The notes: generated by a model not told the origin, from the sequence alone. A stretch of DNA of 62,077 nt from Candidatus Nanoarchaeia archaeon (GCA_035288985.1 DATDYP010000025.1:1-62077), one strand, 5' to 3'; counted from the first letter of the stretch, positions 30,915 through 56,466 are shown. Numbers and translations: made by a program.

Positions 30915-30957
30915 CTTTATCCACAATCTTTTTAACTAAAACCCTTATTTTTGCCTT

Positions 30958-31638
30958 ATGAATGGCATAAAGCATCTTGGCATCATTCTGGACGGCAACC
31001 GCAGGTATGCAACAGCAAAAGGCCTGCCGCCCTGGGAAGGGCATAGATTAGGTATAAAGAACGGAAATAAGTTAATCAGCGAGTGGATGGTAGACCTTAA
31101 TATCAAAGAACTGACATTATATCTGTTCTCGATGCAGAATTTTAACAGGGATCCTAAAGAAGTCAAATTCCTTATGAAATTGTTTAAGGAATGGCTAAAA
31201 TCTCTTGATTTTAAGGAATTGAAAAAGAAAGGCATTAAAGTTAATTTTATTGGTAGAATCTATTTGTTCTCTAAAGATATACATTCTTCAATGAAAGAGA
31301 TCATGGAAAAGACTAAGGATAACGAGAATCATATTGTCAATCTGGCCATGGGTTATGGCGGGCAGGAAGAGATTGTTGATGCGGTTAACACTATTTTGAA
31401 GGAGGGAAGATTAAAACAAGTTGATGAGAAAGAATTTTCAAAATATCTTTACCTACAGAGTGAACCTGACATCATCATCAGAACTGGTGGAGCCAGAAGA
31501 ACTTCTAATTTCTTAGTCTGGCAGTCTTGGTATAGTGAATGGTTCTTTACAGAGAAAACCTGGCCGGAATTTACGAAAGAAGATCTGGTTAAAGTGATGG
31601 AAGAATATAAAAAAAGAGAACGAAGGTTTGGGAAGTAA
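30958..31638 (+). CDS. uppS: cis-prenyltransferase (undecaprenyl diphosphate synthase family)
   Basis: IILDGNRRYA, FSMQNFNR, IIRTGG, SNFLVWQSWYSE. Confidence 0.94.
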   Translation: MNGIKHLGIILDGNRRYATAKGLPPWEGHRLGIKNGNKLISEWMVDLNIKELTLYLFSMQNFNRDPKEVKFLMKLFKEWLKSLDFKELKKKGIKVNFIGRIYLFSKDIHSSMKEIMEKTKDNENHIVNLAMGYGGQEEIVDAVNTILKEGRLKQVDEKEFSKYLYLQSEPDIIIRTGGARRTSNFLVWQSWYSEWFFTEKTWPEFTKEDLVKVMEEYKKRERRFGK

Positions 31639-31641
31639 GGT

Positions 31642-32277
31642 ATGCATAAAGTAGAACTAAGTATTCACCATAGAACCTGCTGGGGATCAGAAATAAGCAG
31701 TAAATTCCCGTATCACCAGTTTTCATCAGTAGATTGCAGATGGATAAAAGACCAAGTTGTCCATATTTTACTAGCACGAGGGGATTCATCACAATTTAAG
31801 ATGATTATTGGATATCTCAACAAGAGAAAAGATGTGATGAAAGTGGAATTTCTTAGTGAAGATGACCAGAGTATCTATCTTAGGGTTCTAACCAAGAAAG
31901 ATGAACATACTCCCCAATTTTCCGATTTATTCTTTGAACATCATTGTTTCCCTGTTCTGCCTACTAGATTTGAAGGGAAGTATGAAGTCTGGACGTTGGG
32001 AACAGCCGAAAAGAATAATATTACAGATGTATATAATTTACTGAAAAAGAAACATTCTGTAAAAATAGATTACCTTAAAGAAGAAACAATTCAAAATGCT
32101 CTTACAAAAAAACAAAGAGAAGTTCTAAATTACGCAAAGCATTTTGGGTATTATGAATGGCCAAGGAAAAAAACAGTTACAGACATTTGTATTATAATAA
32201 ATATGCCAAAAACAGTTTTTCTCTCGCATCTGAGAAAAGCCGAGAATAAAATTATGTCTGACTTCTTATCCCGATGA
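31642..32277 (+). CDS. Transcription regulator with C-terminal bacterio-opsin-activator-type HTH
   Basis: LTKKQREVLNYAKHFGYYEWPRK...SHLRKAENKI. Confidence 0.8.
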   Translation: MHKVELSIHHRTCWGSEISSKFPYHQFSSVDCRWIKDQVVHILLARGDSSQFKMIIGYLNKRKDVMKVEFLSEDDQSIYLRVLTKKDEHTPQFSDLFFEHHCFPVLPTRFEGKYEVWTLGTAEKNNITDVYNLLKKKHSVKIDYLKEETIQNALTKKQREVLNYAKHFGYYEWPRKKTVTDICIIINMPKTVFLSHLRKAENKIMSDFLSR

Positions 32278-32310
32278 AAGTAGACCATGGTCTATAGAAA
32301 TTTAATATAG

Positions 32311-32757
32311 ATGTCGGTATTTTTCTCTGCCATGGAGTTTAAACCATTTGAAAATAAGCTTGTAGCAGTCTTGAGTAAGAACATAGAGACAGGTAGAGCT
32401 ATGAATGCTTTGGCTCATATGGCGTTAGGATTAAGCGGAAGTGTTAAAAATAGAGAGGAACTAAGACTACAAGATTATACTGATGCTGACAGAGAAAGAC
32501 ACCCTCAAATTTCAGACATACCATTCATTATTCTTAAAGGAAGCTCTGGTCAGATACGAAACCTACGAAAATCTGCTCTTGAAAATGGTTTGCATTTTAC
32601 TGATTTTACCAATACTATGATTGGAGAGACGTATGTTCAACAACATCAAAATACCCAGAAAACGAGAGAAGAAGACTTGGAGTATTTTGGAATTTGTTTG
32701 TTTGGGAATTGGGGAAAAATTTCTGAACTTACCAAAAAATTTTCGTTATGGAGGTAG
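32311..32757 (+). CDS. DUF2000-like (peptidyl-tRNA hydrolase II-like) protein
   Basis: KLVAVLSKNIETGRAMNALAHMALGL, YTDAD, ISDIPFIILKG. Confidence 0.7.
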   Translation: MSVFFSAMEFKPFENKLVAVLSKNIETGRAMNALAHMALGLSGSVKNREELRLQDYTDADRERHPQISDIPFIILKGSSGQIRNLRKSALENGLHFTDFTNTMIGETYVQQHQNTQKTREEDLEYFGICLFGNWGKISELTKKFSLWR

Positions 32758-32763
32758 AATAAC

Positions 32764-33105
32764 ATGGATCCTGACCTTCGACAACTGATAGACAGCCGGG
32801 AATATAGGGGATTTACTGGCGAAGCTGCTGTAGAAGAAGCATATCAACGAATTTCTGAAAGATATGACCAACCTAGAAACGAATCTGATTTGATTATGAC
32901 TCTTATTAATTCTAATGGATTTAAATCCTTGTTTGAGATGTATTTTGCCCTACATCCAGAAGAAGCTCAACAGATTGTGGACGAGCATAATGCCAGATTT
33001 ACTGGATTACGAGGATGGTTAGAACCGTTTGCATACTTTTGCAATCCAGTTCGTGGTGCAAGATATGAGGCTGCAAGAAGGCAATTAGAAGAGCATAAGG
33101 AATAA
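32764..33105 (+). CDS. Hypothetical protein
   Basis: 113-aa co-oriented ORF. Confidence 0.55.
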   Translation: MDPDLRQLIDSREYRGFTGEAAVEEAYQRISERYDQPRNESDLIMTLINSNGFKSLFEMYFALHPEEAQQIVDEHNARFTGLRGWLEPFAYFCNPVRGARYEAARRQLEEHKE

Positions 33106-33111
33106 AAAAAA

Positions 33112-33900
33112 TTACAACTTACTCCCTAACTCAATTGCCGCCTGCCGCATGTCTCTTGCTTCATAGATTCCTCTGCCAACGATGGCATGGAAACGTTGGC
33201 CAGCTGCCGCTGCTCCTTTTGAAACCTCCCCGCCTTGAGCTACAAAACCAGGAGAGAAGAAGGAAGGATTTTCTATCCCGCCCTGTTCCTCAATGTAGGA
33301 TTTGTAGAGAGCAATTCGCTCCGGCTTATTGCCGGGAACGACAAAGTCTTCCACACCCAATTTTGCTGCAATGAGATACATCATCAGAACACCTTCTGGC
33401 CTGATAAATCCAGTTTGATCGACCATCCCAAGTTGATGGAAGATTGCACTATAATCAGTCTTGACCGTACCATCTTTGTTCCTTTCATTGCTAAAATCAC
33501 CATCCAGATAACGGGCATGAGTCATCTCACCACCTACGATAACACCTAATCCTAGTTCTTGGGCAGTTTTGATCCAACTGTATTCAGTTACCGGACCTGA
33601 TTGAGGAAATAATATTACAGCGTCAATTCCAGATTCCTTCATCTGCTCCAAAATACTGCGAGCGGTGTCTGGGGTGTCTGTTCCCAATTTTTGCCCGTCA
33701 AAGATCAGCGGCTTGCCAGTTTCATATCTTGCGACTTCAACGACCGCATCATAACCAGGCCTTCCTGTTAACGCCGGCCCAATCTTATAGCCGCCAATTA
33801 CATCCAAATCCCCCGTTGCTTTGACAAGCTGTTCAAAAACCTTCAAAGGCACGTCACATGCCGGTATGATACTTCGATCTCGTTCAATTATCTTTCCCAT
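33112..33900 (-). CDS. pyrF: Orotidine 5'-phosphate decarboxylase
   Basis: IPACDV, GGYKIG, IFDGQKLGTDTPDT (DxKxxD-type), PGFVAQGG, IVGRGIY; adjacent to pyrE. Confidence 0.85.
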   Translation of the reverse strand: MGKIIERDRSIIPACDVPLKVFEQLVKATGDLDVIGGYKIGPALTGRPGYDAVVEVARYETGKPLIFDGQKLGTDTPDTARSILEQMKESGIDAVILFPQSGPVTEYSWIKTAQELGLGVIVGGEMTHARYLDGDFSNERNKDGTVKTDYSAIFHQLGMVDQTGFIRPEGVLMMYLIAAKLGVEDFVVPGNKPERIALYKSYIEEQGGIENPSFFSPGFVAQGGEVSKGAAAAGQRFHAIVGRGIYEARDMRQAAIELGSKL

Positions 33901-33902
33901 TT

Positions 33903-34631
33903 TTATTCACCTAAATGTATCGGTTCAACACCATATTGTCTAAATTCAGCTTCAACTTTATCAGCAATATCACGTCCTGGCTGCAATTTCTGATATGCTA
34001 GCGGCAATAGATCAAGAGCATTGCTGAGCGATCTATATGGAACATTCATGCGTGCTAGAGCTCTCCGAACACTTAAACCATCATCACGCAGTTCCATGCG
34101 ATTAGTAAGGCCGATAGCAGCAACGACAGGTACCCCATCATTCCTAAGACGTTCTATTTCATCAATTAAGGAACCTCCAGTGGTAGTGACATCTTCCAGA
34201 ACAAGAGTTGGTCCTTTAGGCACCCCGCCTATATAATGTCTATCTTCCGGTCTGCCATGATCTTTTGGCTTGCTCCGCCTCAACGTCAGCTTATCGCTTC
34301 CAAAATCATATTCTGGTGATCGTTTAGCTAGTTCGACTTTTGTGAAGGCAGCAAGAAACGTCGCTCCGTCAGGAACACCATAAATATACTGTGCTTTGAT
34401 ACCATAGTCACTGATATAATCTGTGATAAAATCTGCAACATGAGTTGCCAGAACGCCAAGCGTAAACACATCAGTAGTAGCTTCCCGCCAATTGACATAC
34501 CAATTAGACTGCCGTCCTGATTTAAGCGTAACCGGCTCTTCAAAAAAACCAATCACACCTCGATCCAGAACAAAATTGTTAAATCTCTCTTGATTGAATC
34601 TTCGCATGTTCAAAACCCCCATTTCCAGCAT
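33903..34631 (-). CDS. pyrE: Orotate phosphoribosyltransferase
   Basis: LKSGRQSNWY, KPKDHG, PRPP-binding LVLEDVTTTGGS. Confidence 0.88.
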   Translation of the reverse strand: MLEMGVLNMRRFNQERFNNFVLDRGVIGFFEEPVTLKSGRQSNWYVNWREATTDVFTLGVLATHVADFITDYISDYGIKAQYIYGVPDGATFLAAFTKVELAKRSPEYDFGSDKLTLRRSKPKDHGRPEDRHYIGGVPKGPTLVLEDVTTTGGSLIDEIERLRNDGVPVVAAIGLTNRMELRDDGLSVRRALARMNVPYRSLSNALDLLPLAYQKLQPGRDIADKVEAEFRQYGVEPIHLGE

Positions 34632-34716
34632 TCCAACAAGAACTCTTTAATAAATGTTTTGAATTATCCACTTAACCACAACAATCCATATAAATGCCTT
34701 TTTGTACTGAAAACAG

Positions 34717-36519
34717 ATGTCTGCAATACACCTTCTCGATGAAGATCTGATCAATAAGATTGCCGCAGGAGAGGTAGTTGAACGCCCGGCTTCAGTAGTA
34801 AAAGAGATAGTAGAAAATTCCCTGGATGCCCAGGCGACGAAGATAGATGTAGAAATACAAGATTCCGGCAAGAAGCTGATAAAAGTAAGTGATAACGGCG
34901 AAGGGATGAGCAAAGAAGATGTCTTAAAATCCGTCCTCAGGCATGCTACCAGCAAGATCCAGTCCGTGGAAGAATTATTTTCCATCACCACTCTCGGCTT
35001 TCGCGGCGAAGCCCTGGCCAGCATCGCAGCCGTATCACAACTTTCTATTACTTCAAAACAGAAAGGAAAACTAGAAGGGTTTACTATGGTACTAGAAAAC
35101 GGAGGTATCATCAATTCTGGAATCGCTGCAGCAGAAGAAGGTACAACTGTAGAAGTTCGTAATCTCTTTTTCAATACACCAGCAAGAAAAAAATTTCTCA
35201 AGACCGATGCCGTGGAGTTGCGGCATATCATTGATGTGGTCATTAACTACGCTCTAGCCAACCCGAAAGTTTCTTTCAAACTAACACACGAAGGGCACAC
35301 GCTGCTGCATTCGCCTGCTGTTGCTGATGCACGGAGCAATATTGCTTCTATCTACGGGATACAGCTGGCCAAGGAATTGCTGGAAGTGCAGTATCAAGAT
35401 GAGTTTGTAAAAATTAACGGCTTCATCGCCAAACCGTATCAAGTCAGGAATGATAAAACCCAGCAAGTTCTGTTGGTCAATAAAAGATGGGTCAAAAATA
35501 ATGACATCACCAAGGCTGTTTACGACGGCTATCATTCCATGTTGTTTGTGAATAAGCATCCTGTTTTTGTCTTGAATCTGGATCTTGATCCGCAGAAGAT
35601 TGACGTCAATGTCCATCCGCAGAAATCTGAAATCAAGATTGAACAGAAAGAACTGGTGATAAAGGCCGTAACTACGGCTGTTAACCAGACCTTGAGGAAG
35701 CATAACCTTATCCCGGTATTGGATGTTGAGTTTGAACAGCAAACCAGTTTTGGCATCCCTGCACAAAAGAAGGTAGAAAAACCTGCCTACAAATATCAGT
35801 TTGAAAAAGCCCAGCAGACCATGTTTGTGCGGGAAGAAGCCTTGCCATTGCAGGAAGCAGAGGAAGATAAAGAAGTATATCAGGAGCAGGAACCAGTAAT
35901 CATCCCGGAACAGGAAGCTGCTGCAGAAAGAACTGAAACATCAGCAATTCCAGCATTAAAAATTCTCGGACAGGTGCACAAGACCTTTTTCGTAGCCGAA
36001 ACGCCGGGAGGGATGATGTGTATCGATCAGCATGCTGCCCATGAACGGGTCTTGTATGAGCAGTTTATGAAGCAGTACATGAACAAGCAGATTGAGGTCC
36101 AGCATCTGCTGCAGGGCGAAATGATGGAATTTTCTCCGGCAGAGAAAATACTAGTAATGGAAAGAAAGGCAGAGCTAGAACGATACGGCTTCAGGCTGGA
36201 AGAGTTTGGCGACAATGCTTTTGTCCTTAAGACAGTGCCGTCATTGCTAGGCAGGATACAGCCGGCAGAAATAACCTACGAAATAGTCAACAAGCTGCAG
36301 CAGGAGAAAGGTTCATTACAGGAGATACAGGAAGAGATCATCACCAGGATGGCCTGTCGTGCTGCAGTGATGGCTGGAGAAGTTCTAAGCATTTTTCAAA
36401 TTAATGCCATCTTAGATGATCTGTCGTTGTGCCAACATCCCTATACCTGCCCGCATGGACGCCCGACTATGATCAAGACCTCGTATGAGGAGTTGGAGAA
36501 GAAGTTTAAACGGAAGTAA
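34717..36519 (+). CDS. mutL: DNA mismatch repair endonuclease MutL
   Basis: KIAAGEVVERPASVVKE, DNGEG, TLGFRGEALASI, DVNVHPQK, endonuclease motifs DQHAAHERVLYE and CPHGRP. Confidence 0.97.
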   Translation: MSAIHLLDEDLINKIAAGEVVERPASVVKEIVENSLDAQATKIDVEIQDSGKKLIKVSDNGEGMSKEDVLKSVLRHATSKIQSVEELFSITTLGFRGEALASIAAVSQLSITSKQKGKLEGFTMVLENGGIINSGIAAAEEGTTVEVRNLFFNTPARKKFLKTDAVELRHIIDVVINYALANPKVSFKLTHEGHTLLHSPAVADARSNIASIYGIQLAKELLEVQYQDEFVKINGFIAKPYQVRNDKTQQVLLVNKRWVKNNDITKAVYDGYHSMLFVNKHPVFVLNLDLDPQKIDVNVHPQKSEIKIEQKELVIKAVTTAVNQTLRKHNLIPVLDVEFEQQTSFGIPAQKKVEKPAYKYQFEKAQQTMFVREEALPLQEAEEDKEVYQEQEPVIIPEQEAAAERTETSAIPALKILGQVHKTFFVAETPGGMMCIDQHAAHERVLYEQFMKQYMNKQIEVQHLLQGEMMEFSPAEKILVMERKAELERYGFRLEEFGDNAFVLKTVPSLLGRIQPAEITYEIVNKLQQEKGSLQEIQEEIITRMACRAAVMAGEVLSIFQINAILDDLSLCQHPYTCPHGRPTMIKTSYEELEKKFKRK

Positions 36520-36549
36520 GGCCGTGGGATTAGACAAAAAACTCTTAAT

Positions 36550-37233
36550 TTATTTCTCACCAACCGCATACCCTTTTGGAACTTCTACATCTTCAGTCTT
36601 CACCGAATTTAAACCGAGCTGAGTGAAGGAATGCTCCTCGCCAGAACCTTCAACCACATACTTCATCGTTAATCCAGAAAACTTGTCCAGATTGATTGTG
36701 GTAGTCCCATAAGCAACGATCATCGTTTTACGCTGTTCGATCAACTCATCCCCTCTGATAACTGCATCGGCAGGAATTCCTTGCGACAAGAGATGCGGCA
36801 AATATGGTAGATCCTCAGTAGAATAGGCAATAGGATAAATTTTTAACCTCAAGCCTTCGCAGGCAACACTCAACGATTCACAGACTGCAAACGCTGTCTT
36901 TTCTATCGGATCAAGATACACAGTATCATATGATAACATCTTGCTCACTCTCACAGGGGTAGAATATTCCTTCTTGATTTTCCCCTTGTAATAAAATACT
37001 AAATATCCACTGGAAGCTATAGAAGTTGTTTTCTTGTAGAAATACCTGTAATTGTCAGCGGTCTTGCTTTTTTCCACCAGTTCTGCTATGGCTGGATCCA
37101 GCTTAAGTTGCTCGACAATGATTGGCTTTTCGGTGATTTCACTCGGCAACGGTTCAGGAGGCGATTCCTGAACTGGTACACAGGCTGTAAGCATAAGAAT
37201 GGATAAGATACATCCAATAATCACCAGCTTCAT
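36550..37233 (-). CDS. Putative lipoprotein (LolA-like/outer-surface beta protein, function unknown)
   Basis: MKLVIIGCILSILMLTAC lipobox; start reassigned to the ATG at 37233. Confidence 0.6.
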   Translation of the reverse strand: MKLVIIGCILSILMLTACVPVQESPPEPLPSEITEKPIIVEQLKLDPAIAELVEKSKTADNYRYFYKKTTSIASSGYLVFYYKGKIKKEYSTPVRVSKMLSYDTVYLDPIEKTAFAVCESLSVACEGLRLKIYPIAYSTEDLPYLPHLLSQGIPADAVIRGDELIEQRKTMIVAYGTTTINLDKFSGLTMKYVVEGSGEEHSFTQLGLNSVKTEDVEVPKGYAVGEK

Positions 37234-37317
37234 AGGCAGAAAGAAATACAAAATACTATTTAAAGCTATTCTTCACCCACCGCAAACTATTTTAACCCTT
37301 ACGTTTTCCAATAAGAT

Positions 37318-37947
37318 ATGAAAATCATCCTTGTCGGCCCTCCGGGAAGCGGGAAGGGAACCATCTCCGAACGACTGGAAAAGGACTTTAAGCTGAAACA
37401 TCTTTCTGCTGGGGAATTGCTGCGGGAAGAGGTAAAAAAAGACACCACCATCGGCAGGGATATCAAAAACCTTATTGAGAAAGGAAACTTAGTTCCCGAT
37501 CAATTGGTAGTAGAGATCATCAAGCTGGAAGTAAAGGGGAAGGATAATTATATCCTGGACGGCTTCCCTCGATCACTGAAACAGGCCGAGGCAATTGATA
37601 ATATGAACATTAGCACGGTCATTTATGTTGAGGTTCCGGAGAATGTCATTGTAGAACGCCTCTCCGGACGACGGGTATGCGCAACAGGAGTGCATGGCTA
37701 CCATCTCAAATACCTCCCTCCCAAAAAACCAGGTGTCTGCGATCATGATGGAACAAAACTTACCATGCGGAAGGACGACGCTCCAGAGATTGTCAAGGAG
37801 CGCTTCAGAGTCTACTATAAGACTACCCAGCCGCTGATCAAATATTACAGCCAAAAAGGGCTTCTAGCAACAGTTGACGGTACTCTTGCTCCAGAGCAGG
37901 TTTATGCTTCGGTAAAAAAGATTATCTTACTACAGAAAAAAAAATAA
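37318..37947 (+). CDS. adk: Adenylate kinase (bacterial type with LID)
   Basis: GPPGSGKGT, YILDGFPR, RLSGRRVC, RKDD. Confidence 0.94.
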   Translation: MKIILVGPPGSGKGTISERLEKDFKLKHLSAGELLREEVKKDTTIGRDIKNLIEKGNLVPDQLVVEIIKLEVKGKDNYILDGFPRSLKQAEAIDNMNISTVIYVEVPENVIVERLSGRRVCATGVHGYHLKYLPPKKPGVCDHDGTKLTMRKDDAPEIVKERFRVYYKTTQPLIKYYSQKGLLATVDGTLAPEQVYASVKKIILLQKKK

Positions 37948-37973
37948 GAGAACAAATAAAAAATCGGTGAACG

Positions 37974-38345
37974 ATGACAACTCAAGTGCTTGCAGCAATT
38001 GGCTTCCTGCTCTCAGCTTATGCTTTCTACGTCAAGATAAGGGCAGGAAAATCAAAATCATATAAACCATTATGCGATATCAAGAAAAATATCTCCTGCA
38101 CAAAGGCCTTTACCAGCAAGTATGGAAGCATAGCAGTTCTTCCCAATCCAGTGTATGGGATGGTGTTTTACCTTCTGCTGTTCATAATCCATGAACACCG
38201 GGTGCTGTTATACTTAAGCACCGTCGCAATGCTGGGAACGATCTATTTGGCTTACTTATCCTACATCAAACAACAGAATTACTGCCTCGTCTGCAGTGGT
38301 ATTTATGTAGTCAATATATTACTGTTTCTAGTCAATCTATTCTAA
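37974..38345 (+). CDS. Vitamin K epoxide reductase (VKOR) family protein
   Basis: CDIKKNISC loop, LPNPVYG, active-site CLVC, four transmembrane segments. Confidence 0.85.
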   Translation: MTTQVLAAIGFLLSAYAFYVKIRAGKSKSYKPLCDIKKNISCTKAFTSKYGSIAVLPNPVYGMVFYLLLFIIHEHRVLLYLSTVAMLGTIYLAYLSYIKQQNYCLVCSGIYVVNILLFLVNLF

Positions 38346-39110
38346 AAACACCAAGCCCAGCATTAAGAGAATACCCATAATTAAGGCAATGATATGCCAG
38401 AAAGATTCCTTCCAGCCGCAGTTCTTGTGCAGTTCCGGGATGAGGTTTGCGCCAGCGATGTAGATGAATCCTCCAGCAGCAAAGGGAAGGATAAAATGGA
38501 TGAATTGTTCGCCTTTCGCTCCCAGAAGTAAACCGACAACAGCGCCGACAATGGCAACAGCTGCAGAAAGAAAATTGAACAGCACAGCTTTGCTTTTAGA
38601 GTAGCCAGCATACAACAACACACCAAAATCAGCAATTTCCTGAGGAACTTCATGCAAGATAACAGCAATAGTAGTAGCAATCCCTGCCGGAACACTCACT
38701 AAGTAGGCTCCAGCAATGACCAAACCGTCAAGAAAATTGTGCAGCCCGTCACCAGCCAGGTTAAGAATTCCAATATGATGCTTATGCGGTTCATGCAGTA
38801 AAGGATAACTATGTTTGTGATGTGGAGTTCCACAATGATGCGCATGGATGAATTTCTCAACAATGAAAAACGCCAGCACGCCGCCAAGAACTGACAAGGC
38901 TACCGGTATTCCAAATCCCTGCTCTTCCACCGCTTCTGGAAGGAGATGCAGAAAAGCGCCGCCCAGCAATGTGCCTGCAGAAACACTCACCATGACCAGA
39001 AGCATCTTGCTGAGCTTCTGCTTTGTCAGAATCAGAGAGACCACTCCTACTAACGAGACTAAGGAAACGATGATGACGCTTATTATCGCATAGATTGAAT
39101 TCAGATCCAT
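38337..39110 (-). CDS. ZIP-family zinc transporter
   Basis: HLLPEA, His-rich loop, LHNFLDG, LHEVPQEIADF. Confidence 0.93.
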   Translation of the reverse strand: MDLNSIYAIISVIIVSLVSLVGVVSLILTKQKLSKMLLVMVSVSAGTLLGGAFLHLLPEAVEEQGFGIPVALSVLGGVLAFFIVEKFIHAHHCGTPHHKHSYPLLHEPHKHHIGILNLAGDGLHNFLDGLVIAGAYLVSVPAGIATTIAVILHEVPQEIADFGVLLYAGYSKSKAVLFNFLSAAVAIVGAVVGLLLGAKGEQFIHFILPFAAGGFIYIAGANLIPELHKNCGWKESFWHIIALIMGILLMLGLVFLE

Positions 39111-39171
39111 GCCAGAAGTAAAAAAGACAGTCTTTATAAATATTATTGATTCTCATTATCAATAAAAGGGA

Positions 39172-40074: not shown

Positions 40075-40107
40075 TTATAAAGATTATTGAGAATTCTTAT
40101 CAATTAG

Positions 40108-40467
40108 ATGAAACGAGAGACCAAGCAGAAACAGATAATTCTGGGGGAAATAACAGCGCTTAGTTCCTTCTTTAACGCAGAAGAATTACATCAAAAGGTT
40201 TCCCAGAATAATCCAAAAATAGGAATCGCCACCGTCTATCGTTTTCTGAACGATTTGGCAGCCAAAGGAGAAATCCATTCCTTCCTCTGCGACAGAAGGA
40301 CAATCTATTCCAACAGCAAAAAGAACCACTGCCACTTCACCTGCGAGAGATGCGGGGAGCGGAAGCACATTGATATCAGAAAACTAGACTTTCTAGATAA
40401 GCAGGTGGATGGAGAGGTTTGTCATTTCCAGATTGATGTGACGGGAGTTTGTAAGAAGTGTAGGTGA
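40108..40467 (+). CDS. fur: Fur-family metalloregulator (probably Zur)
   Basis: IGIATVYRFL, HCHFTCERC, CKKC; close to the ZIP transporter. Confidence 0.9.
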   Translation: MKRETKQKQIILGEITALSSFFNAEELHQKVSQNNPKIGIATVYRFLNDLAAKGEIHSFLCDRRTIYSNSKKNHCHFTCERCGERKHIDIRKLDFLDKQVDGEVCHFQIDVTGVCKKCR

Positions 40468-40500
40468 GGGGTTATAAAATAGATTCTATTTGTGTTAATT

Positions 40501-42490: not shown

Positions 42491-42518
42491 GGTTATACTG
42501 CAGAATATAGGTCTGCTT

Positions 42519-43951: not shown

Positions 43952-43969
43952 TTTATATATTCTCATTAA

Positions 43970-45193: not shown

Positions 45194-45266
45194 TTTAATT
45201 CTAATACTCTGAAAATCAAAAACTGAAAATAATAACAATTATAAACTCATAAAAACTACTAACCCT

Positions 45267-46493: not shown

Positions 46494-46494
46494 C

Positions 46495-47760: not shown

Positions 47761-47796
47761 AGCAAGATTTTTAAAACAGAATAAGAATTATCTTCT

Positions 47797-48930: not shown

Positions 48931-49502
48931 AGAAAAGGCTCATTGGATTAGCAGCCCTGCTCGCTGCTTGTTCACCACAGAAAGAAATCCTAACCCCGCC
49001 AGTAATACCAGAAATAAAATTAGAAGAAAGAACGGCACCTGAAGTTGATCCAGAACCTCTGGAAGAGAAGGAGAAAGTATCACCTCACAACGAATACCGC
49101 AACTTAGGAGAACAATGCGGCCAAATCCAGCTGGAAAGAGGGACGTATCCAGTAAAGAAGGAGGGCTGGGATGCCATATATACGGTACAGACTTGGGATT
49201 CTGGAAAAAATTGCTACCTTGCTCTATCAAACCCAGAGCTTTCGGTTGAAATGAGGGATGACGACTGTGATAATACGATCGATCGCATAGGCGTAGAAGA
49301 ATACCCCCTCGTAGAATACCGTATCGGTCTTCGCGGAGACCGCATCGACCTTAGTCTTGACCGTGCTGCATTATCGAGGCTTGGTTACACAAAGCCTTTT
49401 GACAAGATCCTTGAAGAAGCGCAGCAATTTGCCTGTCCGGAAAACAAAAGACACTTAGAAGAATATCTTTTGAAAAGAGTCCTAGAAATTGGGAATAAAT
49501 AA
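48927..49502 (+). CDS. Putative lipoprotein
   Basis: MKKRLIGLAALLAAC lipobox. Confidence 0.6.
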   Translation: MKKRLIGLAALLAACSPQKEILTPPVIPEIKLEERTAPEVDPEPLEEKEKVSPHNEYRNLGEQCGQIQLERGTYPVKKEGWDAIYTVQTWDSGKNCYLALSNPELSVEMRDDDCDNTIDRIGVEEYPLVEYRIGLRGDRIDLSLDRAALSRLGYTKPFDKILEEAQQFACPENKRHLEEYLLKRVLEIGNK

Positions 49503-49524
49503 AAATAAGAAAATAACTCCTTAC

Positions 49525-49959
49525 CTACGGCAAAAAGCTCAATCCGCCTACAATCGCTCCCATCAACAGCAAGTTCACCAAATCATAGGCTGTATTAAGA
49601 AAGTATAAATTCCAGGACTTACCCTCCCAGAAAACGCTGCCTAAAGATTTAGTAGCTACAAAGCCTAGCCAGATCAAAGCTCCAACAAGTGCACCACCCA
49701 AAGCATTCCATAAAACTGGGGTTGCTCCGGTAATGTCTACAAAATCTTTAACTAGAAAAGCTAAAACAGCCGCTGTCACCAGTGAAGCCACAAAACTCAT
49801 CGAATACGTTTTAGCCATGCCTTTCTGCTTGGCTTTCTCCATATCCTTCTCAGTAAACTTCATCAAAGCCATCCATTTCTTGCCAAATAAAGGCCCATAC
49901 CACAAAAAGCCCAAGGCATGGGATACCACAGCTGCAATTAAAACTTCCAAGTATACCAT
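49525..49959 (-). CDS. DUF1761-like membrane protein
   Basis: LGFLWYGPLFGKKWMAL, four transmembrane segments, FLNTAYDLV. Confidence 0.8.
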   Translation of the reverse strand: MVYLEVLIAAVVSHALGFLWYGPLFGKKWMALMKFTEKDMEKAKQKGMAKTYSMSFVASLVTAAVLAFLVKDFVDITGATPVLWNALGGALVGALIWLGFVATKSLGSVFWEGKSWNLYFLNTAYDLVNLLLMGAIVGGLSFLP

Positions 49960-50074
49960 CTTTTATCACGCTCCAGATATTTTTGATGATAGAGGAAGAG
50001 AAGTGTTATAAGTCTTTCTCTACCAGCCTTCTCTTAGAAAGATTTATAAGTCTGCTTTTTATCACCACTAGAAA

Positions 50075-50683
50075 ATGACGGAAGATTCTCAAGAGGCCAT
50101 AGGACTCGGGACTCGCTTCTCTGACGAGTACAGAAAACACTATAGTAAGATCTACTCCCAGCTGATGCGAAAAACCGGAAACAAGACTGTGGCTGAAGAT
50201 TTAACCCAAGAAACATTCAGGAAGGCATTTGAAAGTCTTAACACCTTCAGAGAGGGAGCTAGTTTTGGCACCTGGCTCTATGGCATAGCCCATAATGTTG
50301 CTCTCGATTATTTCCGAGACAGAAGGATGCAATCAGCATTTTATAATGGAGCTATGGAAGGTCTGCGGCAAAAAGACGGTCATCACAGAAGTTCTGATGA
50401 AAAAAGTCAACGCTGGTTCCTGGGCGGGCTGGAGCAGGTTCTTGCCGTTGTCAGCAGCACTCCTGAACAGGATGCAATAACCTGCGAGGAAGTTGCTGAA
50501 GCACGGAAATATATCATGACAGCTCTTTCTGAAAAGCTGCGACATGCATACTCACTGCATCTTCAAGGATATACTGATCGGGAAATTGCAGAACAGCTTG
50601 GAATGAAAGAACAGGCAGTAACGACACGAATCAGCAGGGCACGACAGCAACTTCGCAACTACCACCAGGAGCAGTCAGCATGA
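50075..50683 (+). CDS. ECF-type sigma-70-family protein
   Basis: Region 2 AEDLTQETFRKAF...SFGTWLYGIAHNVALDYFR; region 4 HTH GYTDREIAEQLGMKEQAVTTRISRARQQLR. Confidence 0.85.
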   Translation: MTEDSQEAIGLGTRFSDEYRKHYSKIYSQLMRKTGNKTVAEDLTQETFRKAFESLNTFREGASFGTWLYGIAHNVALDYFRDRRMQSAFYNGAMEGLRQKDGHHRSSDEKSQRWFLGGLEQVLAVVSSTPEQDAITCEEVAEARKYIMTALSEKLRHAYSLHLQGYTDREIAEQLGMKEQAVTTRISRARQQLRNYHQEQSA

Positions 50684-51228
50684 AACAAACCATCATCGCA
50701 CGTCTTCAACAACTTGAACAGAAATCGATCAAAAGAGGCATACCTATCCTTGGCTCGCAAAAAGGCGCCTGGCTATTGCAGCAAGTGCAAAAACTGAAAC
50801 CAAAACGTATTCTGGAATTAGGAACTGCTAACGGCTATAGTGGCTGCATTCTAGGCAGTGAAGGAGCTGACCTAACAACCGTTGAAATTGATGACAAGAT
50901 CGCTGAAGAAGCAGTTGTGAATTTTGCTGCCTTTGATATCAAAGCGAACATCATCCTTGGCGATGGCGTGGAAATCGTAGGTGATCTGGCCAGGCAAAAA
51001 AAAGAGTATTATGATCTCATTTTTATTGACTTCTCAAAAAAGAATTATATCAAAGTCCTGGAACAGTGCATCAAACTGGTTCGACAAGACGGCTTGATCA
51101 TCGCTGACAATATCAGTTTTGAAAACTGCCAAGATTTCAAAGAAGCAGTGCTTGCACATCCAAAGCTGGAAACAGAAATCATCAGCATCAAAGACGGGCT
51201 GAGCTGCAGCCGAAAGAGAGAGGTATGA
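50680..51228 (+). CDS. Class I O-methyltransferase (TrmR/YrrM-like)
   Basis: GIPIL, KRILELGTANGYSG, DLIFID, GLIIADN. Confidence 0.8.
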   Translation: MKQTIIARLQQLEQKSIKRGIPILGSQKGAWLLQQVQKLKPKRILELGTANGYSGCILGSEGADLTTVEIDDKIAEEAVVNFAAFDIKANIILGDGVEIVGDLARQKKEYYDLIFIDFSKKNYIKVLEQCIKLVRQDGLIIADNISFENCQDFKEAVLAHPKLETEIISIKDGLSCSRKREV

Positions 51229-51923
51229 ATAAGAATACAATAAGCATGCTGGTTTTTCTTGCAGGATGCGCAGAAACACCCCTTCCTACCCCACCAACAC
51301 CGGAAGTCATCATTCCTGAACGTATTGTCACTAATAAAGATTTAAAGCAGGAACCTACAGACGTTCTTGCACAACAGATCTTCCATGATCTTGAGCATTT
51401 GACAACAGGTGACGAAGCGGGAGTACGACTGATCAAACATTATAATGTTGATACAGAAAAGTGGGAAGAAAAACCAGTCTATCAACTGCAAAGATCAGCG
51501 GTGAAGCTCCCTTCTTATCACTCAGATATCATCGTTTCAGTAAGGGATGTTTATCACGACGGAACAACAGACTTAGAAATCAGAAGAGTTGCTAAAAAGG
51601 AGATCAGAGTCTACCGCGATCTTCCGCCATTCGGCACCCTGGATTCATATGAAGAATGCCGCCGAAGACCGTATCATGTCGTGGTTTGTGTCGGCCAATC
51701 CTGTTCGGGAAGTGATAAAACAGAATACTTCGCCTGCAACGGCAAGGAAATCAGCCCAAAAGTGAAAGAAGCCTTCAACACCCTGGTTGCCCGCGTCCAT
51801 AACAGCCTGAATGAAGCAACTCCTCTGGATAAGCAGGATTATCATTACATGGAACTGGAGTTTATCTTAGAAAGGAGTGAGGCGGTAATTAATCTTGCTG
51901 GAACCAAGAGTCCGTATAAGTGA
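51225..51923 (+). CDS. Putative lipoprotein
   Basis: MNKNTISMLVFLAGC lipobox followed by a Pro-rich linker. Confidence 0.6.
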   Translation: MNKNTISMLVFLAGCAETPLPTPPTPEVIIPERIVTNKDLKQEPTDVLAQQIFHDLEHLTTGDEAGVRLIKHYNVDTEKWEEKPVYQLQRSAVKLPSYHSDIIVSVRDVYHDGTTDLEIRRVAKKEIRVYRDLPPFGTLDSYEECRRRPYHVVVCVGQSCSGSDKTEYFACNGKEISPKVKEAFNTLVARVHNSLNEATPLDKQDYHYMELEFILERSEAVINLAGTKSPYK

Positions 51924-51964
51924 CTGGATCGTAGACATCAGGAATAAAGACAAAAATTGGGCTG

Positions 51965-52933
51965 TTAAAGATATTGATAATAGACTTCAAAGAATTTTCG
52001 ATACGTTTCTTTTGCTTTTTCTATTCCGAATCTTAGTAAAGGGATATAACGATCTGTGTCTGCTGATTGTAAGGCTTTGATATATTTATTACGATGAGTA
52101 TTCCTGATAATGATAGGATAATATCCTTTTCTGATCAAGATGTGATTTAAGAGCATTCTACCCACTCTTCCATTTCCATCTGCAAAAGGATGAATCTGCT
52201 CAAATTTATGATGAAACCTAAATGCCAATTCTAAAGGATAAACCTTATTTTCCGTTTCCCAGTACCATTTTAAAAGATTCTTAATCTCCCGAGAAACATT
52301 CTCTGGAGCAGTTAATGTAATAGCTCTGCCTAAAATAATATTCGGCAATTTTTTATAGCCAACGCGCTCATCAACGTTTTTCATAAGCTTCTTATGCAGT
52401 TCAATAATAAATTCTTCCGTTATTTCCTTCTTCGAGTCAAATAACTTTGAAAAAATTTCATAAGAATTTTTGGCATCATAAACTTCTCTCAGATCAGCAG
52501 AAGCGACTATTTTATTCTCAAAAACAATTTCAGAAAAGTTCTTTAGAGTGAGGGAATTGCCCTCCAAGGCGTTTGATTCAAACACGAAATTAGCCACGAA
52601 TCTTTTTTTAACGTCTTCCCAATCTTTTTTATTCAATGCTCTTCGAATTTCTTTATATTTTAGGTTCATTTCTTCGATCTTTTTTATTTCTTCAATAGTA
52701 AGGGGGAAGTCCAAAGAATACTTTTTTTTAGCGTCTGCTACTAAAAAGGAAACAATTTTTTTATCTAGTTCTAAGGCAAATTTTTTCTTTTCTTTCTCAA
52801 TTTGTTCTGGAGATATTCCTGATTTTTTCCCCAAGAACTTGCTGATTTTGTGCACTTTCTTTCCGATCCGGATAGATTTATCTAAGTAAAGGTAAACCTC
52901 TCCCTTTGCCTTTCGTTTCTGGATAAAGACCAT
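51965..52933 (-). CDS. Fic-domain protein
   Basis: Catalytic HPFADGNGRVGR and inhibitory-helix-like ESNALEGN. Confidence 0.92.
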   Translation of the reverse strand: MVFIQKRKAKGEVYLYLDKSIRIGKKVHKISKFLGKKSGISPEQIEKEKKKFALELDKKIVSFLVADAKKKYSLDFPLTIEEIKKIEEMNLKYKEIRRALNKKDWEDVKKRFVANFVFESNALEGNSLTLKNFSEIVFENKIVASADLREVYDAKNSYEIFSKLFDSKKEITEEFIIELHKKLMKNVDERVGYKKLPNIILGRAITLTAPENVSREIKNLLKWYWETENKVYPLELAFRFHHKFEQIHPFADGNGRVGRMLLNHILIRKGYYPIIIRNTHRNKYIKALQSADTDRYIPLLRFGIEKAKETYRKFFEVYYQYL

Positions 52934-52940
52934 ACCAGCA

Positions 52941-52986
52941 GTTATACCTACATATATTTAAATCCTTCGTTTATTGTAGGTATAAC
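52941..52986. promoter_or_regulatory. Inverted-repeat operator candidate flanking the Fic gene TATA box
   Basis: GTTATACCTACA (52941-52952)/TGTAGGTATAAC (52975-52986) around ATATTTAAAT. Confidence 0.55.
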
Positions 52987-53002
52987 CAGGTGCTGCAAGA
53001 CT

Positions 53003-53096
53003 TATACTAAAGGATTGAAATTTTCGAACAAAATTTCCCTCCTTTATATATACAAAGGGCTTAAATTTTCTTCGAAAATTTATGTCCTTTGGTATA
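53003..53096. repeat. Long imperfect hairpin
   Basis: AAATTTTCGAA (53018-53028)/TTCGAAAATTT (53071-53081) plus outer TATAC/GTATA and inner CCTTT/AAAGG. Confidence 0.7.
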
Positions 53097-53171
53097 TTAC
53101 AAAAATGTCATACCTACTACATTAATGCAACACTTTTCTTTTTCCATCTGCAATAAACACCATAATACACC

Positions 53172-53323
53172 GGCTCTGTAGAAAGCCTTAAAAAAGTCGC
53201 CTTGGCCGCTCGGTTCGTGCTTCTAAATAAGTATCTTCTCGCAGGAAGCACCAATAATATCTGCAAGCAGTGGATGCTCTCACTTCGCCTTAAGGCCCAG
53301 GCGGCGACTTTTTCTACAGAGCC
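53172..53323. mobile_element. MITE-like element, 152 bp
   Basis: Perfect 13-bp terminal inverted repeat GGCTCTGTAGAAA/TTTCTACAGAGCC; 9-bp direct repeat TAATACACC (53163-53171, 53324-53332); internal AAAAGTCGCC/GGCGACTTTT stem. Confidence 0.75.
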
Positions 53324-53330
53324 TAATACA

Positions 53331-53350
53331 CCACAATCTTTAAATATAAT
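53331..53350 (+). promoter_or_regulatory. BRE/TATA promoter of the aro leader and operon
   Basis: CCACAATC-TTTAAATA with an ATG 30 nt after the box start. Confidence 0.7.
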
Positions 53351-53368
53351 TCTGCATTTCACATCCAA

Positions 53369-53422
53369 ATGGTCCACAGCAGCAGGAAGAACTGGACTGC
53401 TTTTCTCTACTATTTTTATTAG
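53369..53422 (+). CDS. Aromatic-rich leader peptide MVHSSRKNWTAFLYYFY (candidate attenuator)
   Basis: Six of the last nine sense codons are Trp/Phe/Tyr; directly upstream of DAHP synthase-tyrA-pheA; overlaps a long RNA stem. Confidence 0.75.
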   Translation: MVHSSRKNWTAFLYYFY

Positions 53423-53493
53423 TTTTGGGTTCGTCAGACATTACGGATCCTGAAAAAAGGAAATAGAGAAAAAGCTATACTGAAACAGCGAGG

Positions 53494-54384
53494 ATGAAAA
53501 TGAGACAGGAAGCCAAACTTGCAAAAACCATACCAACAGGAAAGGAATACTGGCTTGTAGCCAGGGAAAGCAGGGACGAGTTCAGAAACAACTTAGACAC
53601 GGTCTCATTCACGATCGGCAATGTAACCGTATCACAGCACAGACCGCTGATCATTGCCGGGCCTTGTGCAGTACATTCACGAGAACAGACTCTTGCCATT
53701 GCCCAACACGTTAAAGAAGCTGGCGCAGACATGCTGCGCGGAGGAGCCTATAAGCCCAGAACATCTCCTTATGCTTTCCAAGGCTTAGAAGAAGAGGGAC
53801 TGAAAATACTTGCGGAAGCACGGGAGCTAACCGGACTACCTATCGTTACAGAAGTTATGGACCCGCGTTTAGTCGAGTTAGTCGGCCAGTACACCGATGT
53901 GCTGCAGATCGGCGCGCGAAACATGCAGAATTTTCCACTCCTGCGGGAAGTAGGAAAATATGCCGCACAACATCAAAAGGGAATATTGCTAAAAACAGGA
54001 TTGATGCCTAAGCTAAAGGAAGTCCTCTGCGCAGCAGAATATCTCGCTCATGAAGGGGCAGAAAAAATCATCATCTGTGAACGAGGCATTTCCCTAACTA
54101 CTGGCGATACGAGAAACACGCCCCACCCCAGTTTTGTACGCGAACTGCGGCAGGCGACCTTCCTTCCTGTCATCGGTGATCCCAGCCATTCTACGGGAGA
54201 TCGGGAATTGGTGGAACATACTTCAGACATGTATCTGGCAGCCAAAGCAAATGGACTGTTAATTGACGTCATCCGCGATGATGAGCCTGATGTCATTAAC
54301 GGGCATCCGGTCTGTGACTATAAACAGGGATTGCCTGCCAGCCGGTTTAAAGCATACCTCAACTCGCTCAGGAAAGAGAAATAA
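53494..54384 (+). CDS. aroF: DAHP synthase, class I-beta, without a full N-terminal ACT domain
   Basis: IIAGPC, RGGAYKPRTSP, QIGARNMQN, CERGI, DPSHSTG; GAGG upstream suggests a start at 53500. Confidence 0.9.
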   Translation: MKMRQEAKLAKTIPTGKEYWLVARESRDEFRNNLDTVSFTIGNVTVSQHRPLIIAGPCAVHSREQTLAIAQHVKEAGADMLRGGAYKPRTSPYAFQGLEEEGLKILAEARELTGLPIVTEVMDPRLVELVGQYTDVLQIGARNMQNFPLLREVGKYAAQHQKGILLKTGLMPKLKEVLCAAEYLAHEGAEKIIICERGISLTTGDTRNTPHPSFVRELRQATFLPVIGDPSHSTGDRELVEHTSDMYLAAKANGLLIDVIRDDEPDVINGHPVCDYKQGLPASRFKAYLNSLRKEK

Positions 54385-54385
54385 A

Positions 54386-55429
54386 ATGAGTCTAGAAAAA
54401 ATCAGAACAGAACTTGATGCGATAGATAAGTCAATCCTGGAATTGCTGGCAAAACGCTTTTCTTTCTGCAAAGACGTCAGCGATTACAAAAAAAAGAACA
54501 AGCTTAAAGTGAAAGATTCTACAAGAGAGGAGGAGATCATCAACGACAGGATCAAAATCTTCTCCGAGCTAGGATATGATGAACCAGAGTTTATTACTGC
54601 ATTATTTACCTTAATTTTAGAAAAGTCACGGGAAAAGATCGCAACCTACTCCTCGGAATCAGAACCAGAACGTAAGGGAAAGAAAAAAACAATCTCCATC
54701 ATCGGAGGAGGGGGAAAGATGGGCTCTTTATTTGCAGAAGAGTTCAGGAAACACGGGCATACTGTGCTTATCTCCAACAAAGAAAAGACCAATTCGGTTG
54801 AACTGGCACAGAAAGGCGATCTTGTTATTGTTACAGTTCCTTTGGAGAAGACAGAAAAAGTTCTAACAGAGATCATCCCGCATCTCCGAAAAGAAGCCTT
54901 GCTGACTGATTTTACATCAATAAAAGAACGACCTTTAGAGATTATGAAAACGGCTGCATCAAATGTGGTGGGAGGACATCCCTTGTTCGGTCCAACGACA
55001 AGCTTTGAAGATAAATGTTTCATCCTCTGTCCTGGGAAAGGTGATTTTAGCTGGTATAAACAATTGCTGCAATCCCTAAACCTTACTGTCATCGAACTCT
55101 CTGCTGAAGAGCACGACAAAACCATGGCCGTGATCCAAAGCTTAACTCATTTCTCCAATCTTGCCTTAGCCTCTACGCTGCAGAAGCTTGGATTTAAAAA
55201 AACGTTTTCCACACCCACCTATGCATTAAAAATGGAATCTATCCAAAAAATGTTCTCCCAGGATGCAGAGCTGTTCGCAGAGATCCAGTTTGCAAATGCA
55301 CATTCGCAAGAAACTATCATCAGCTACCTTGCTGCGGTGCACGAACTGCATCAATGCCTCCTCTCAGGCAACAAAGAGGAGTTTGAACGTCTCTTCGAAA
55401 GCACAAAACAGCATCTACAAAAAAAGTAA
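54386..55429 (+). CDS. tyrA: Chorismate mutase / prephenate dehydrogenase fusion
   Basis: LEKIRTELDAIDKSILELLAKR (chorismate mutase), IIGGGGKMG, DFTSIK, GGHPLFGP, HDKTMAVIQSLTH; start reassigned to 54386. Confidence 0.9.
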   Translation: MSLEKIRTELDAIDKSILELLAKRFSFCKDVSDYKKKNKLKVKDSTREEEIINDRIKIFSELGYDEPEFITALFTLILEKSREKIATYSSESEPERKGKKKTISIIGGGGKMGSLFAEEFRKHGHTVLISNKEKTNSVELAQKGDLVIVTVPLEKTEKVLTEIIPHLRKEALLTDFTSIKERPLEIMKTAASNVVGGHPLFGPTTSFEDKCFILCPGKGDFSWYKQLLQSLNLTVIELSAEEHDKTMAVIQSLTHFSNLALASTLQKLGFKKTFSTPTYALKMESIQKMFSQDAELFAEIQFANAHSQETIISYLAAVHELHQCLLSGNKEEFERLFESTKQHLQKK

Positions 55430-55439
55430 CCAGACCAAG

Positions 55440-56243
55440 ATGATCAAGACCATCGCCATCCTCGGGCCAGAATACAGTTTCTCCCATCTAGCAGGCCTGA
55501 AACTATTTCCGGAAGGGAAATTTTTGTTCTGTAACAGGATAGAAGACATCTTCAAGACCATAACGAGAGCAGATACAACTGCAGATGAAACACTTGGGAT
55601 GGTCCCTTTAGAAAATATGCTGCAGGGAACGGTGCGGGAAACGCTGATGTCCCTGCTAAACTATCAAGTCAAGATCCACAAAAGCTGCAGTGTTCCTATC
55701 CATCATTGCCTGGCTGCTAAAAGTGTGGGATTTACAACTATTGCTTCACATGCACAGGCGCTGGCACAATGCGCGCGCTTTCTGGAAGGAAAGAAAACTG
55801 TCGAACAGGTCAGTACCTCAAAAGCGATGCAGGCAGCAACAGAAGACAATACCCTGGCTGCCATCGGCTCCAGAGAAGCAGCACAATATTACGGACTAAC
55901 AGTGCTGCAGGACAATATCGAAGACAATCATGATAATGTGACACGATTTGTGGTCATTTCTGCTGAACCATGCCCGGATAAGGGTGCAAGAACCAGCCTG
56001 ATGGTGCATCCTAAAGAAGACCGTCCTGGACTATTGTTCACGATCCTAGCGCCCTTTGCGACACAGGGAATTAACTTAACCAAGATCGAGTCCCTGCCTT
56101 CAGGAAAAAAACTTGGTGAGTATATTTTTTATATTGAGATCGCTGGAAATAGTAGTGAGCTAAAAGTGAAATCGGCTATTGATTTTCTCAAAAACAGCGC
56201 GGAAGTCTATTCTTTTGGGTCGTATGATGTGGTGGAGATGTGA
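55440..56243 (+). CDS. pheA: Prephenate dehydratase
   Basis: ILGPEYSFS, VPLENMLQG, SHAQALAQC, NVTRF, C-terminal ACT NLTKIESLP; start reassigned to 55440. Confidence 0.9.
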   Translation: MIKTIAILGPEYSFSHLAGLKLFPEGKFLFCNRIEDIFKTITRADTTADETLGMVPLENMLQGTVRETLMSLLNYQVKIHKSCSVPIHHCLAAKSVGFTTIASHAQALAQCARFLEGKKTVEQVSTSKAMQAATEDNTLAAIGSREAAQYYGLTVLQDNIEDNHDNVTRFVVISAEPCPDKGARTSLMVHPKEDRPGLLFTILAPFATQGINLTKIESLPSGKKLGEYIFYIEIAGNSSELKVKSAIDFLKNSAEVYSFGSYDVVEM

Positions 56244-56275
56244 GCAAAACATTCTTCATAAAAACTCAAAAAACC

Positions 56276-56419
56276 GTACGTATTTAGTTAGTAGGCCAAG
56301 GGTGAATTTTGCTAAGCTTTAGTGACAGGAACAGAAGTGAAAATTATCGATAACAAATCTGTTTACCAACTATTTATCATCAAATTTTCACCAAAATTCA
56401 CGGCCAACTAAATACGTAC
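56276..56419. mobile_element. MITE-like palindromic element, 144 bp
   Basis: Perfect 14-bp inverted repeat GTACGTATTTAGTT/AACTAAATACGTAC; near-direct repeat AAAAAACC/AAAAAGCC; inner GTGAATTTTG/CAAAATTCAC and GTGAAAATT/AATTTTCAC stems. Confidence 0.6.
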
Positions 56420-56466
56420 AAAAAGCCACAATATTTATATTGTCCTGCCCCTTTAGTAGCTCTATA

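Follow-up and report, generated by a model that had tools for sequence, protein, structure and literature searches.

Four MITEs in the window and their families

The 62,077-nt contig analysed here (C25, hereafter the window) belongs to the 989-kb, 32-contig genome (79% complete) of Candidatus Nanoarchaeia archaeon, a tiny groundwater archaeon of the DPANN type; proteins identical to those of this host occur in metagenome assemblies of aquifer groundwater. [quoted passage not shown] The elements and their surroundings are as follows.

8667-8675 (left) and 8798-8806 (right), 9-bp TSD of E4, CCTTCCTTC
8676-8797, no strand, MITE E4, 122 bp, TIR GGCTAATATGAAACCC
8798-8820, plus strand, promoter side of E4: BRE-like ATAAAA, TATA box GATATAAA at 8813-8820, ATG at 8842 (TATA start +29)
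30567-30574 (left) and 30915-30922 (right), 8-bp TSD of E1, CTTTATCC
30575-30914, no strand, MITE E1, 340 bp, TIR GTAATACTTTA, two internal GGCC-clamp modules
30915-30936, plus strand, promoter side of E1: BRE ACAATC at 30923-30928, TATA box TTTTTAAC at 30929-30936, ATG of uppS at 30958
53163-53171 (left) and 53324-53332 (right), 9-bp TSD of E2, TAATACACC
53172-53323, no strand, MITE E2, 152 bp, TIR GGCTCTGTAGAAA
53324-53346, plus strand, promoter side of E2: BRE ACAATC at 53333-53338, TATA box TTTAAATA at 53339-53346
53370, ATG of the gene after E2, a leaderless 17-codon open reading frame (ORF) that lies upstream of the DAHP synthase operon
56268-56275 (left, AAAAAACC) and 56420-56427 (right, AAAAAGCC), 8-bp TSD of E3 (AAAAARCC), one mismatch
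56276-56419, no strand, MITE E3, 144 bp, TIR GTACGTATTTAGTTAG
56420-56441, plus strand, promoter side of E3: BRE ACAATA at 56428-56433, TATA box TTTATATT at 56434-56441, ATG at 56467

At all four elements (8676, 30575, 53172 and 56276), the right TSD ended exactly 6 nt before the TATA box, and the ATG of the next, leaderless gene lay 29-33 nt after the TATA start. The initial annotation had reported a duplication followed by a BRE/TATA-like box at 30923, 53333 and 56428, and these coordinates were exact; it had also noted that the 8676 element abuts a TATA-like box, and the TSD of this element indeed ends 6 nt before the box at 8813. At E1, the stop codon of the preceding gene ends at 30553, which gives a pre-insertion spacer of 21 nt.

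MITE families were defined by BLAST searches of the whole genome and by a comparison of the genome with itself. The BLAST searches found three copies of E1, about 13 of E2, three of E3 and nine of E4, and the self-comparison revealed at least a dozen short repeat families, including E5 (TIR GGCTCTGTCCTGAAT, 9-bp TSD), E2b (TIR TGGYTTGTCCAGAA, 8-bp TSD) and FAM4 (TIR TGTGTTATCTCG, 15-bp TSD). The TIRs of E1-E5 and FAM4 were 11-16 nt long, and the TSD length was fixed for each family at 8 bp (E1, E3 and E2b), 9 bp (E2, E4 and E5) or 15 bp (FAM4), while the TSD sequence varied among the copies within families. The families comprised 3 to about 13 copies of 120-400 bp each, too short for a transposase gene. 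The window elements are, thus, genuine MITEs, that is, non-autonomous DNA transposons with TIRs. The same TIRs were present as MITEs in many other genera of the taxonomic family; the E3 TIR alone was found in 64 of its 114 genomes, and a single genome had as many as about 78 such ends.

Four families with unlike TIRs (E1, E2, E2b and E3) had a common internal module of the form stem-GGCC ... GGCC-AA-stem with a variable core (30592-30900, 53190-53310 and 56290-56410 in the window), and some E2 copies held an additional hairpin of ca. 57 nt. To judge from this arrangement, MITEs with unlike ends may have been built around one common structured module.

Fixed distance between the duplication and the TATA box

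The promoter profile of the host was derived by expectation-maximisation from 624 regions that precede crudely called ORFs, and it was also applied to the relatives. It consisted of a BRE, (A/C)(A/G)AAA, at positions -7 to -3 and a TATA box, TTTATAAA, at positions 0 to +7. TATA starts peaked 30-35 nt ahead of the start codons, and the transcripts are therefore leaderless. In terms of this profile, the 11-mer CCACAATMTTT at the window insertions is made up of the C-rich -8/-7 positions, the A-rich BRE and the T's with which the TATA box opens.

The distance from insertions to promoters was evaluated with 62 element ends of six families aligned on the outer edge of the TSD, counting TATA boxes of at least 7 bits as strong. 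A strong TATA box stood exactly 6 nt beyond the TSD (offset 6) at 14 of the 62 ends, against a background of 0.0054 per intergenic position, and the promoter bias predicted by the initial annotation for the genome-wide copies is thus present. Offsets of 5, 7 or 8 nt accounted for six further ends, and any other offset for two at most. Since 13 of the 14 ends came from the 54 ends outside the window, the test is independent of the copies that prompted the hypothesis. Of 26 complete (paired) elements from six families, 18 had a TATA box of at least 5 bits at offset 6 on one side, and 21 had one at offset 5-6. The offset-6 boxes are real promoters because ATG ORFs, directed away from the element, begin 29-31 nt after them. 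The element end and the TATA box are 14-15 bp apart, or 22 bp in the IS481 type described below.

It is conceivable that insertion is random or merely AT-biased, and that purifying selection retains the copies that fell into the neutral gap in front of a BRE. Some pre-insertion spacers, measured from the stop codon to the BRE, were as short as 8-21 nt, leaving little other neutral space nearby. On the other hand, many other insertions had 40-250 nt of free spacer at their disposal and nevertheless adjoined the BRE. A selection-aware null model was constructed by simulating insertion at all placements that avoid ORFs, repeats and core promoters (from BRE to start codon), and offsets 6 and 5-6 made up 1.8% and 3.1% of these placements, respectively. 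The observed share at offset 6 was 69%, an excess that would remain highly significant even if neutral space had been overestimated ten-fold. Of the 22 elements outside the window, 14 were at offset 6 (binomial P = 1e-19) and 17 at offset 5-6 (P = 4e-22). Selection is unable to yield single-nucleotide precision, and young multi-copy insertion sequences (ISs) that break the assemblies follow the same rule. An explanation without targeting is thus very improbable. The initial annotation had proposed promoter-targeted integration that spares coding sequence; the boxes 29-33 nt before outward start codons support this proposal, as does a fixed offset that selection for harmless sites leaves unexplained. 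We consider mechanistic targeting of promoters, of whatever kind, to be highly probable.

The rule was replicated in other genera of the taxonomic family, where a TATA box of at least 5 bits was located exactly at offset 6 at 6 of 18 E2-like, 16 of 38 E3-like, 4 of 21 E2b-like and 3 of 6 E1-like ends (pooled, 29/83; background 0.0064, P = 3e-42). Since only one end per element can face a promoter, 29 of 83 ends correspond to ca. 70% of the elements.

One E2 copy, split between the right end of contig C26 and the left end of C12 of the host genome (G000) and joined in a 65-kb public scaffold (L214, 880-1215), had no matching TSD (GCGAGGAAA against CTACTGATA). Each of these 9-mers nevertheless had a promoter exactly 6 nt outside it, the two promoters being divergent. 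Such a structure would fit a recombination of two promoter-docked copies or an intramolecular transposition, and may also be a scaffolding artefact.

The general target pattern was TSD-N6-TTTAWAWA, in which N6 is the A-rich BRE. The BRE hexamer (ACAATC, CATAAA, CAAAGG, AAAATA and others) and the TATA octamer differed among copies of one family; the motif ACAATMTTT that the initial annotation had described is present in the three window copies and does not extend to the insertions in general. When the targeted promoters were compared with 352 generic promoters, the two sets were statistically indistinguishable at every position from -15 to -1, with C at -7 slightly commoner in the former (14 of 22 versus 39%, p=0.08), and TATA strength was equal (p=0.66). 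The promoter was found at either end of the element, and the elements were oriented towards it at random (4:3 for E4 and 3:3 for E5), with no bias seen. The left-flank ATAAAMAC of the initial annotation, which had noted it in three elements, does occur there, but the non-promoter flank showed no significant motif genome-wide (Mann-Whitney p=0.07); a symmetric target, with a TATA box on both sides or with ATAAAMAC on the left, was likewise rejected as unsupported genome-wide.

The BRE/TATA motif belongs to the target, as the initial annotation had proposed, because it lies outside the TSD, varies among copies and is indistinguishable from ordinary promoters, fitting the BRE/TATA profile of the genome on either side of the element. 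The opposite possibility, that the motif is the element's own outward promoter or a longer terminus, or that the three window matches arose by chance, draws on the 11-mer common to the three window copies. A motif beyond the TSD that differs among copies of the same family, occurs at either element end and always keeps the canonical distance from the start codon of a host gene is incompatible with ownership by the element, and chance is excluded by the statistics from both the host genome and the other genera; we regard this possibility as negligible. Integration is, thus, one-sided and orientation-independent, takes place at the upstream border of the BRE and spares the promoter.

Parental insertion sequences, other repeats and neighbouring genes

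No DDE_Tnp_1 or IS66 genes were present in the assembled part of the host genome. Relatives of the host carry two related, complete ISs with 9-bp TSDs: L124 (996 bp, TIR GGCTCTGTAGAATTGC), whose termini match E2, and L129 (885 bp), whose TIR GGCTCTGTCCTGAATCT is identical to that of E5 and which has an 11.7-bit TATA box at offset 6. Their transposases of ca. 270-300 aa matched DDE_Tnp_1 (PF01609) at 58.4 and 50.4 bits (cut-off 23) and, as the best match by a wide margin, the NCBIfam IS5 model NF033579 at 138.5 and 125.7 bits, just under its cut-off of 140. The host has an IS5-like IS of its own at contig ends: contigs C3 and C15 stop 140 nt into it, reaching the N-terminus of the transposase, and the final 200 nt of the IS open C10. 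One TSD, AGCACATAA, is common to the C3 end and the C10 start; after it come AAAAGC-TTTATATA and, 31 nt later, an Fpg gene. E2 is a non-autonomous relative of this IS. Small ISs of the IS5 family (DDE_Tnp_1) appear to mobilise the 9-bp families, with putative parents assigned by their termini for E2 and E5.

At another locus (L243, G056:C21:39150-39535), an IS481-like IS neighbours an IS5-like IS: it lies 8 nt beyond the end of the latter and 24 nt from a TATA-like box located 16 nt within that end. The IS5-like IS of the host carries the same internal box (GGCTCTGTAGAATTGC followed by TTTTTAAA), which mirrors the geometry of the target (element end, 15 nt, TATA).

The FAM4 MITEs derive from L241, a 940-bp IS encoding a 287-aa IS481-like protein with a helix-turn-helix (HTH) region and an rve core. 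This protein matched PF00665 (rve) at 53 bits and rve_3 at 45.7 bits, gave weak matches with HTH_28/29, and scored 198.6 bits against NCBIfam NF033577 over profile positions 2-283 of 284 (cut-off 224). The termini of this type were T(G/C)T(G/A)TTATC, and the 15-bp TSD was exact in three copies. The 15-bp family appears to be mobilised by an IS481-family (rve) IS. Eight of 26 single ends had a TATA box at a distance of 21-23 nt from the end of the IS (P = 2e-8), with a mode of 22 nt, that is, 15 + 7. The promoter-proximal cuts of the IS5 type (9-bp stagger) and the IS481 type (15-bp stagger) are thus within one base of each other (offset 6 versus 7), and the boundary of the 8-bp families is likewise at offset 6.

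No autonomous parent with matching termini was found for E1, E3 and E4 among the searched genomes. IS66 was considered as the parent of the 8-bp families with GTA... ends and was dismissed: IS66 transposases occurred in 6 of 61 relatives, without matching termini. Long pairs of E3 ends, considered as parents of E3, proved to be solo ends or micro-MITEs of 49-54 nt; the latter, exemplified at L217 (G014:C37:1518-1566 and 3823-3876), are hardly more than two E3-type TIRs.

Two further kinds of repeat in the window differ from these MITEs. FAM7, a 94-nt double-hairpin repeat bounded by TATA/TA (53003-53096), has four copies and a related family, FAM8. It appears to be an element of another kind that targets TA; its window copy is ca. 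40 nt from the TATA box of the Fic gene and hence outside the offset-6 rule. A repeat of ca. 165 nt (5944-6108, GTCAAAATAGGACT...GGTGGAATACTCAGCGT) has at least six copies and neither TIRs nor a TSD; several of its copies end flush with a T/A-rich, TATA-like stretch, and some FAM4 MITEs contain a fragment of this repeat. The genome's long repeats were considered as transposons and rejected, being RHS/YD toxin cassettes and surface-protein genes and not ISs. The RHS/YD-repeat cassettes are duplicated (C11:1361-10680 and C26:208-9549 of G000); their C-terminal tips vary, and they include small genes of putative immunity function.

The 17-codon ORF after E2 (53370-53423, MVHSSRKNWTAFLYYFY) is rich in Trp, Phe and Tyr codons, starts 31 nt after the TATA start and precedes the genes for DAHP synthase, chorismate mutase/prephenate dehydrogenase and prephenate dehydratase, which makes it a candidate leader peptide. 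The DAHP synthase (53494-54384) is of bacterial type, and its best genome matches (49-51% identity) were nearly all from bacteria, together with two Micrarchaeota metagenome-assembled genomes, which suggests horizontal acquisition of the aro operon. A search of the whole window against Rfam matched no known RNA family.

Proposed landmark and comparison with known systems

These results show integration aimed at core promoters. The strand-transfer site nearest the promoter lies between -7 and -6, counted from the base at which the TATA box begins; this is the BRE's upstream edge, and in the IS481 type the site is one base farther out. The 8-15 bp upstream of the cut are duplicated, the BRE, the TATA box and, 29-33 nt downstream, the leaderless start stay intact, and the element enters in random orientation. 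As the most likely landmark we hypothesise a promoter that TBP and TFB occupy and sharply bend, and not a sequence that every transposase reads for itself. The transpososome would attack whatever DNA first becomes accessible at the upstream border of the TBP/TFB complex, in a manner resembling the integration of Ty3 at the TFIIIB edge and that of TnGBS/ISLre2 at 15-17 bp from the -35 box, on its upstream side. For genomes of 1-1.5 Mb with ca. 85-90% coding sequence, the promoter border would offer a harmless landing site.

To the TBP/TFB complex as the landmark we assign a probability of roughly 0.5. It is favoured because the target is one-sided, while symmetric direct readout should give a palindrome, as with IS903; because the target holds no information beyond that of an ordinary promoter; and because unrelated enzymes share the boundary, as a steric or structural border would lead them to do. 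The competing explanation is direct readout, in which each transposase itself would recognise the A-rich BRE and TATA sequence, or its shape or flexibility, at a fixed distance without any host protein. BRE and TATA are indeed the sole information in the target, and IS903 reads TRAAW flanking its duplication, a motif resembling the BRE core RAAA just after the TSD here (PMC2577343). The targets of known direct-readout DDE transposases are, however, palindromic, and the present one is strictly one-sided; direct readout would also need at least two, probably three, independent gains of the same specificity, and the targeted promoters are no stronger TATA matches than the average. We regard direct readout as the main rival, somewhat less probable than the TBP/TFB landmark.

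Several points weigh against the TBP/TFB landmark. The transposases are small (ca. 270-300 aa) and show no extra domain able to dock on TFB or TBP, which is also what direct readout would lead one to expect. The boundary of the IS481 type is 7 and not 6 nt from the TATA box, similar and not identical, and this one-base difference suits independent rulers. The parent transposase of the 8-bp-TSD families (E1, E3 and E2b) was not found. All copies are survivors of selection, and some sharpening of the offset by selection is possible. Finally, empty alleles were not recovered, and the pre-insertion state is deduced from the TSDs only: a search via contigs encoding uppS, DAHP synthase, two E2-flanking genes and the Fpg gene beside the IS returned only contigs bearing the same insertions or ending inside them, and the closest match in metagenomes had 59% amino-acid identity.

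The broader proposal, that at least two unrelated transposase families (IS5 and IS481 type) and probably a third (8-bp) converged on the TBP/TFB-occupied promoter across this DPANN family, is put forward tentatively. The pattern is precise to the nucleotide and holds for six or more families of MITEs and for two superfamilies of transposases. Archaeal TBP and TFB are a simplified homologue of the eukaryotic machinery, and a transposase docking at their border would make the choice between tethering and DNA shape testable with three purified proteins. Docking at promoters would account for the tolerance of compact DPANN genomes to high MITE loads, MITE copies could serve as a sequence-based map of functional promoters in uncultured organisms, and the transposases could become tools for promoter-proximal insertion. 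If TBP/TFB is the beacon, these elements would be an archaeal DNA-transposon counterpart of Ty3/TFIIIB, each MITE copy would be the fossil of an occupied promoter, and the transposases would be natural reagents for placing insertions beside promoters.

Eukaryotic retroelements such as Ty1, Ty3 and Tf1, and a few bacterial Mutator-like elements, are textbook cases of promoter-directed integration. In a full-text literature search and in recent surveys of archaeal ISs and prokaryotic MITEs, no archaeal IS or MITE was found reported to insert in a promoter-targeted way. The present data support an archaeal case of such integration, which has so far been described for a few bacterial and yeast elements. 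The closest published case is that of the bacterial TnGBS conjugative elements, the ISLre2 family and the ISKra4 group, whose DDE transposases are Mutator-like (p-MULT 3/4). Their insertion sites lie 15-17 bp upstream of the sigma-A -35 box, and members with symmetric inverted repeats insert there in both orientations (PMC3942029). The DDE elements described here are analogous and not homologous to them: they too insert in both orientations at a fixed distance upstream of a promoter that stays intact, and the 14-15 bp from element end to TATA box (22 bp in the IS481 type) is close to the distance of TnGBS from the -35 box. Unlike those bacterial, Mutator-like elements at sigma-70-type promoters, the present ones are archaeal, have IS5- and IS481-family transposases as far as these were identified, are mostly non-coding MITEs and face BRE/TATA promoters. 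For archaea, the same paper notes only that an AT-rich motif is duplicated by ISH6, a situation that differs from the present one (PMC3942029).

Within the IS5 family, IS903 targets a palindrome, WTTYA-N9-TRAAW (PMC2577343). The parents of the 9-bp families are, like IS903, small single-ORF ISs of ca. 0.9-1 kb with DDE_Tnp_1, GGCT... termini and a 9-bp TSD, and in both cases the choice of target is set by the bases flanking the duplication and not by the duplication itself. Unlike the palindromic site of IS903, which is not promoter-specific, the target described here has one informative flank, with a full BRE/TATA promoter 6 nt away. The parent of the 15-bp family resembles the IS481 family in its HTH region and rve core, TGT... 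termini, length of ca. 0.95 kb and long (15-bp) duplications. Duplications in the IS481 family range from 4 to 15 bp (ISfinder). To our knowledge, elements of the IS481 family have not been described as targeting promoters.

The closest analogy in mechanism is Ty3 with TFIIIB. TFIIIB consists of TBP and Brf1, a paralogue of TFB/TFIIB, and Ty3 integrates at the border of the TBP-containing initiation complex. This yeast retrotransposon is tethered by TFIIIB to the start sites of RNA polymerase III (PMC6673722). Ty3 is a long terminal repeat retrotransposon with a retroviral-type integrase that inserts on the start-site side, unlike the DNA transposons described here, which insert upstream of the BRE and for which tethering is inferred only. 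As with Ty3, the position at the core-promoter border is nucleotide-precise and would provide a safe haven in a compact genome, and the archaeal TBP/TFB pair is the homologue of the landmark used by Ty3.

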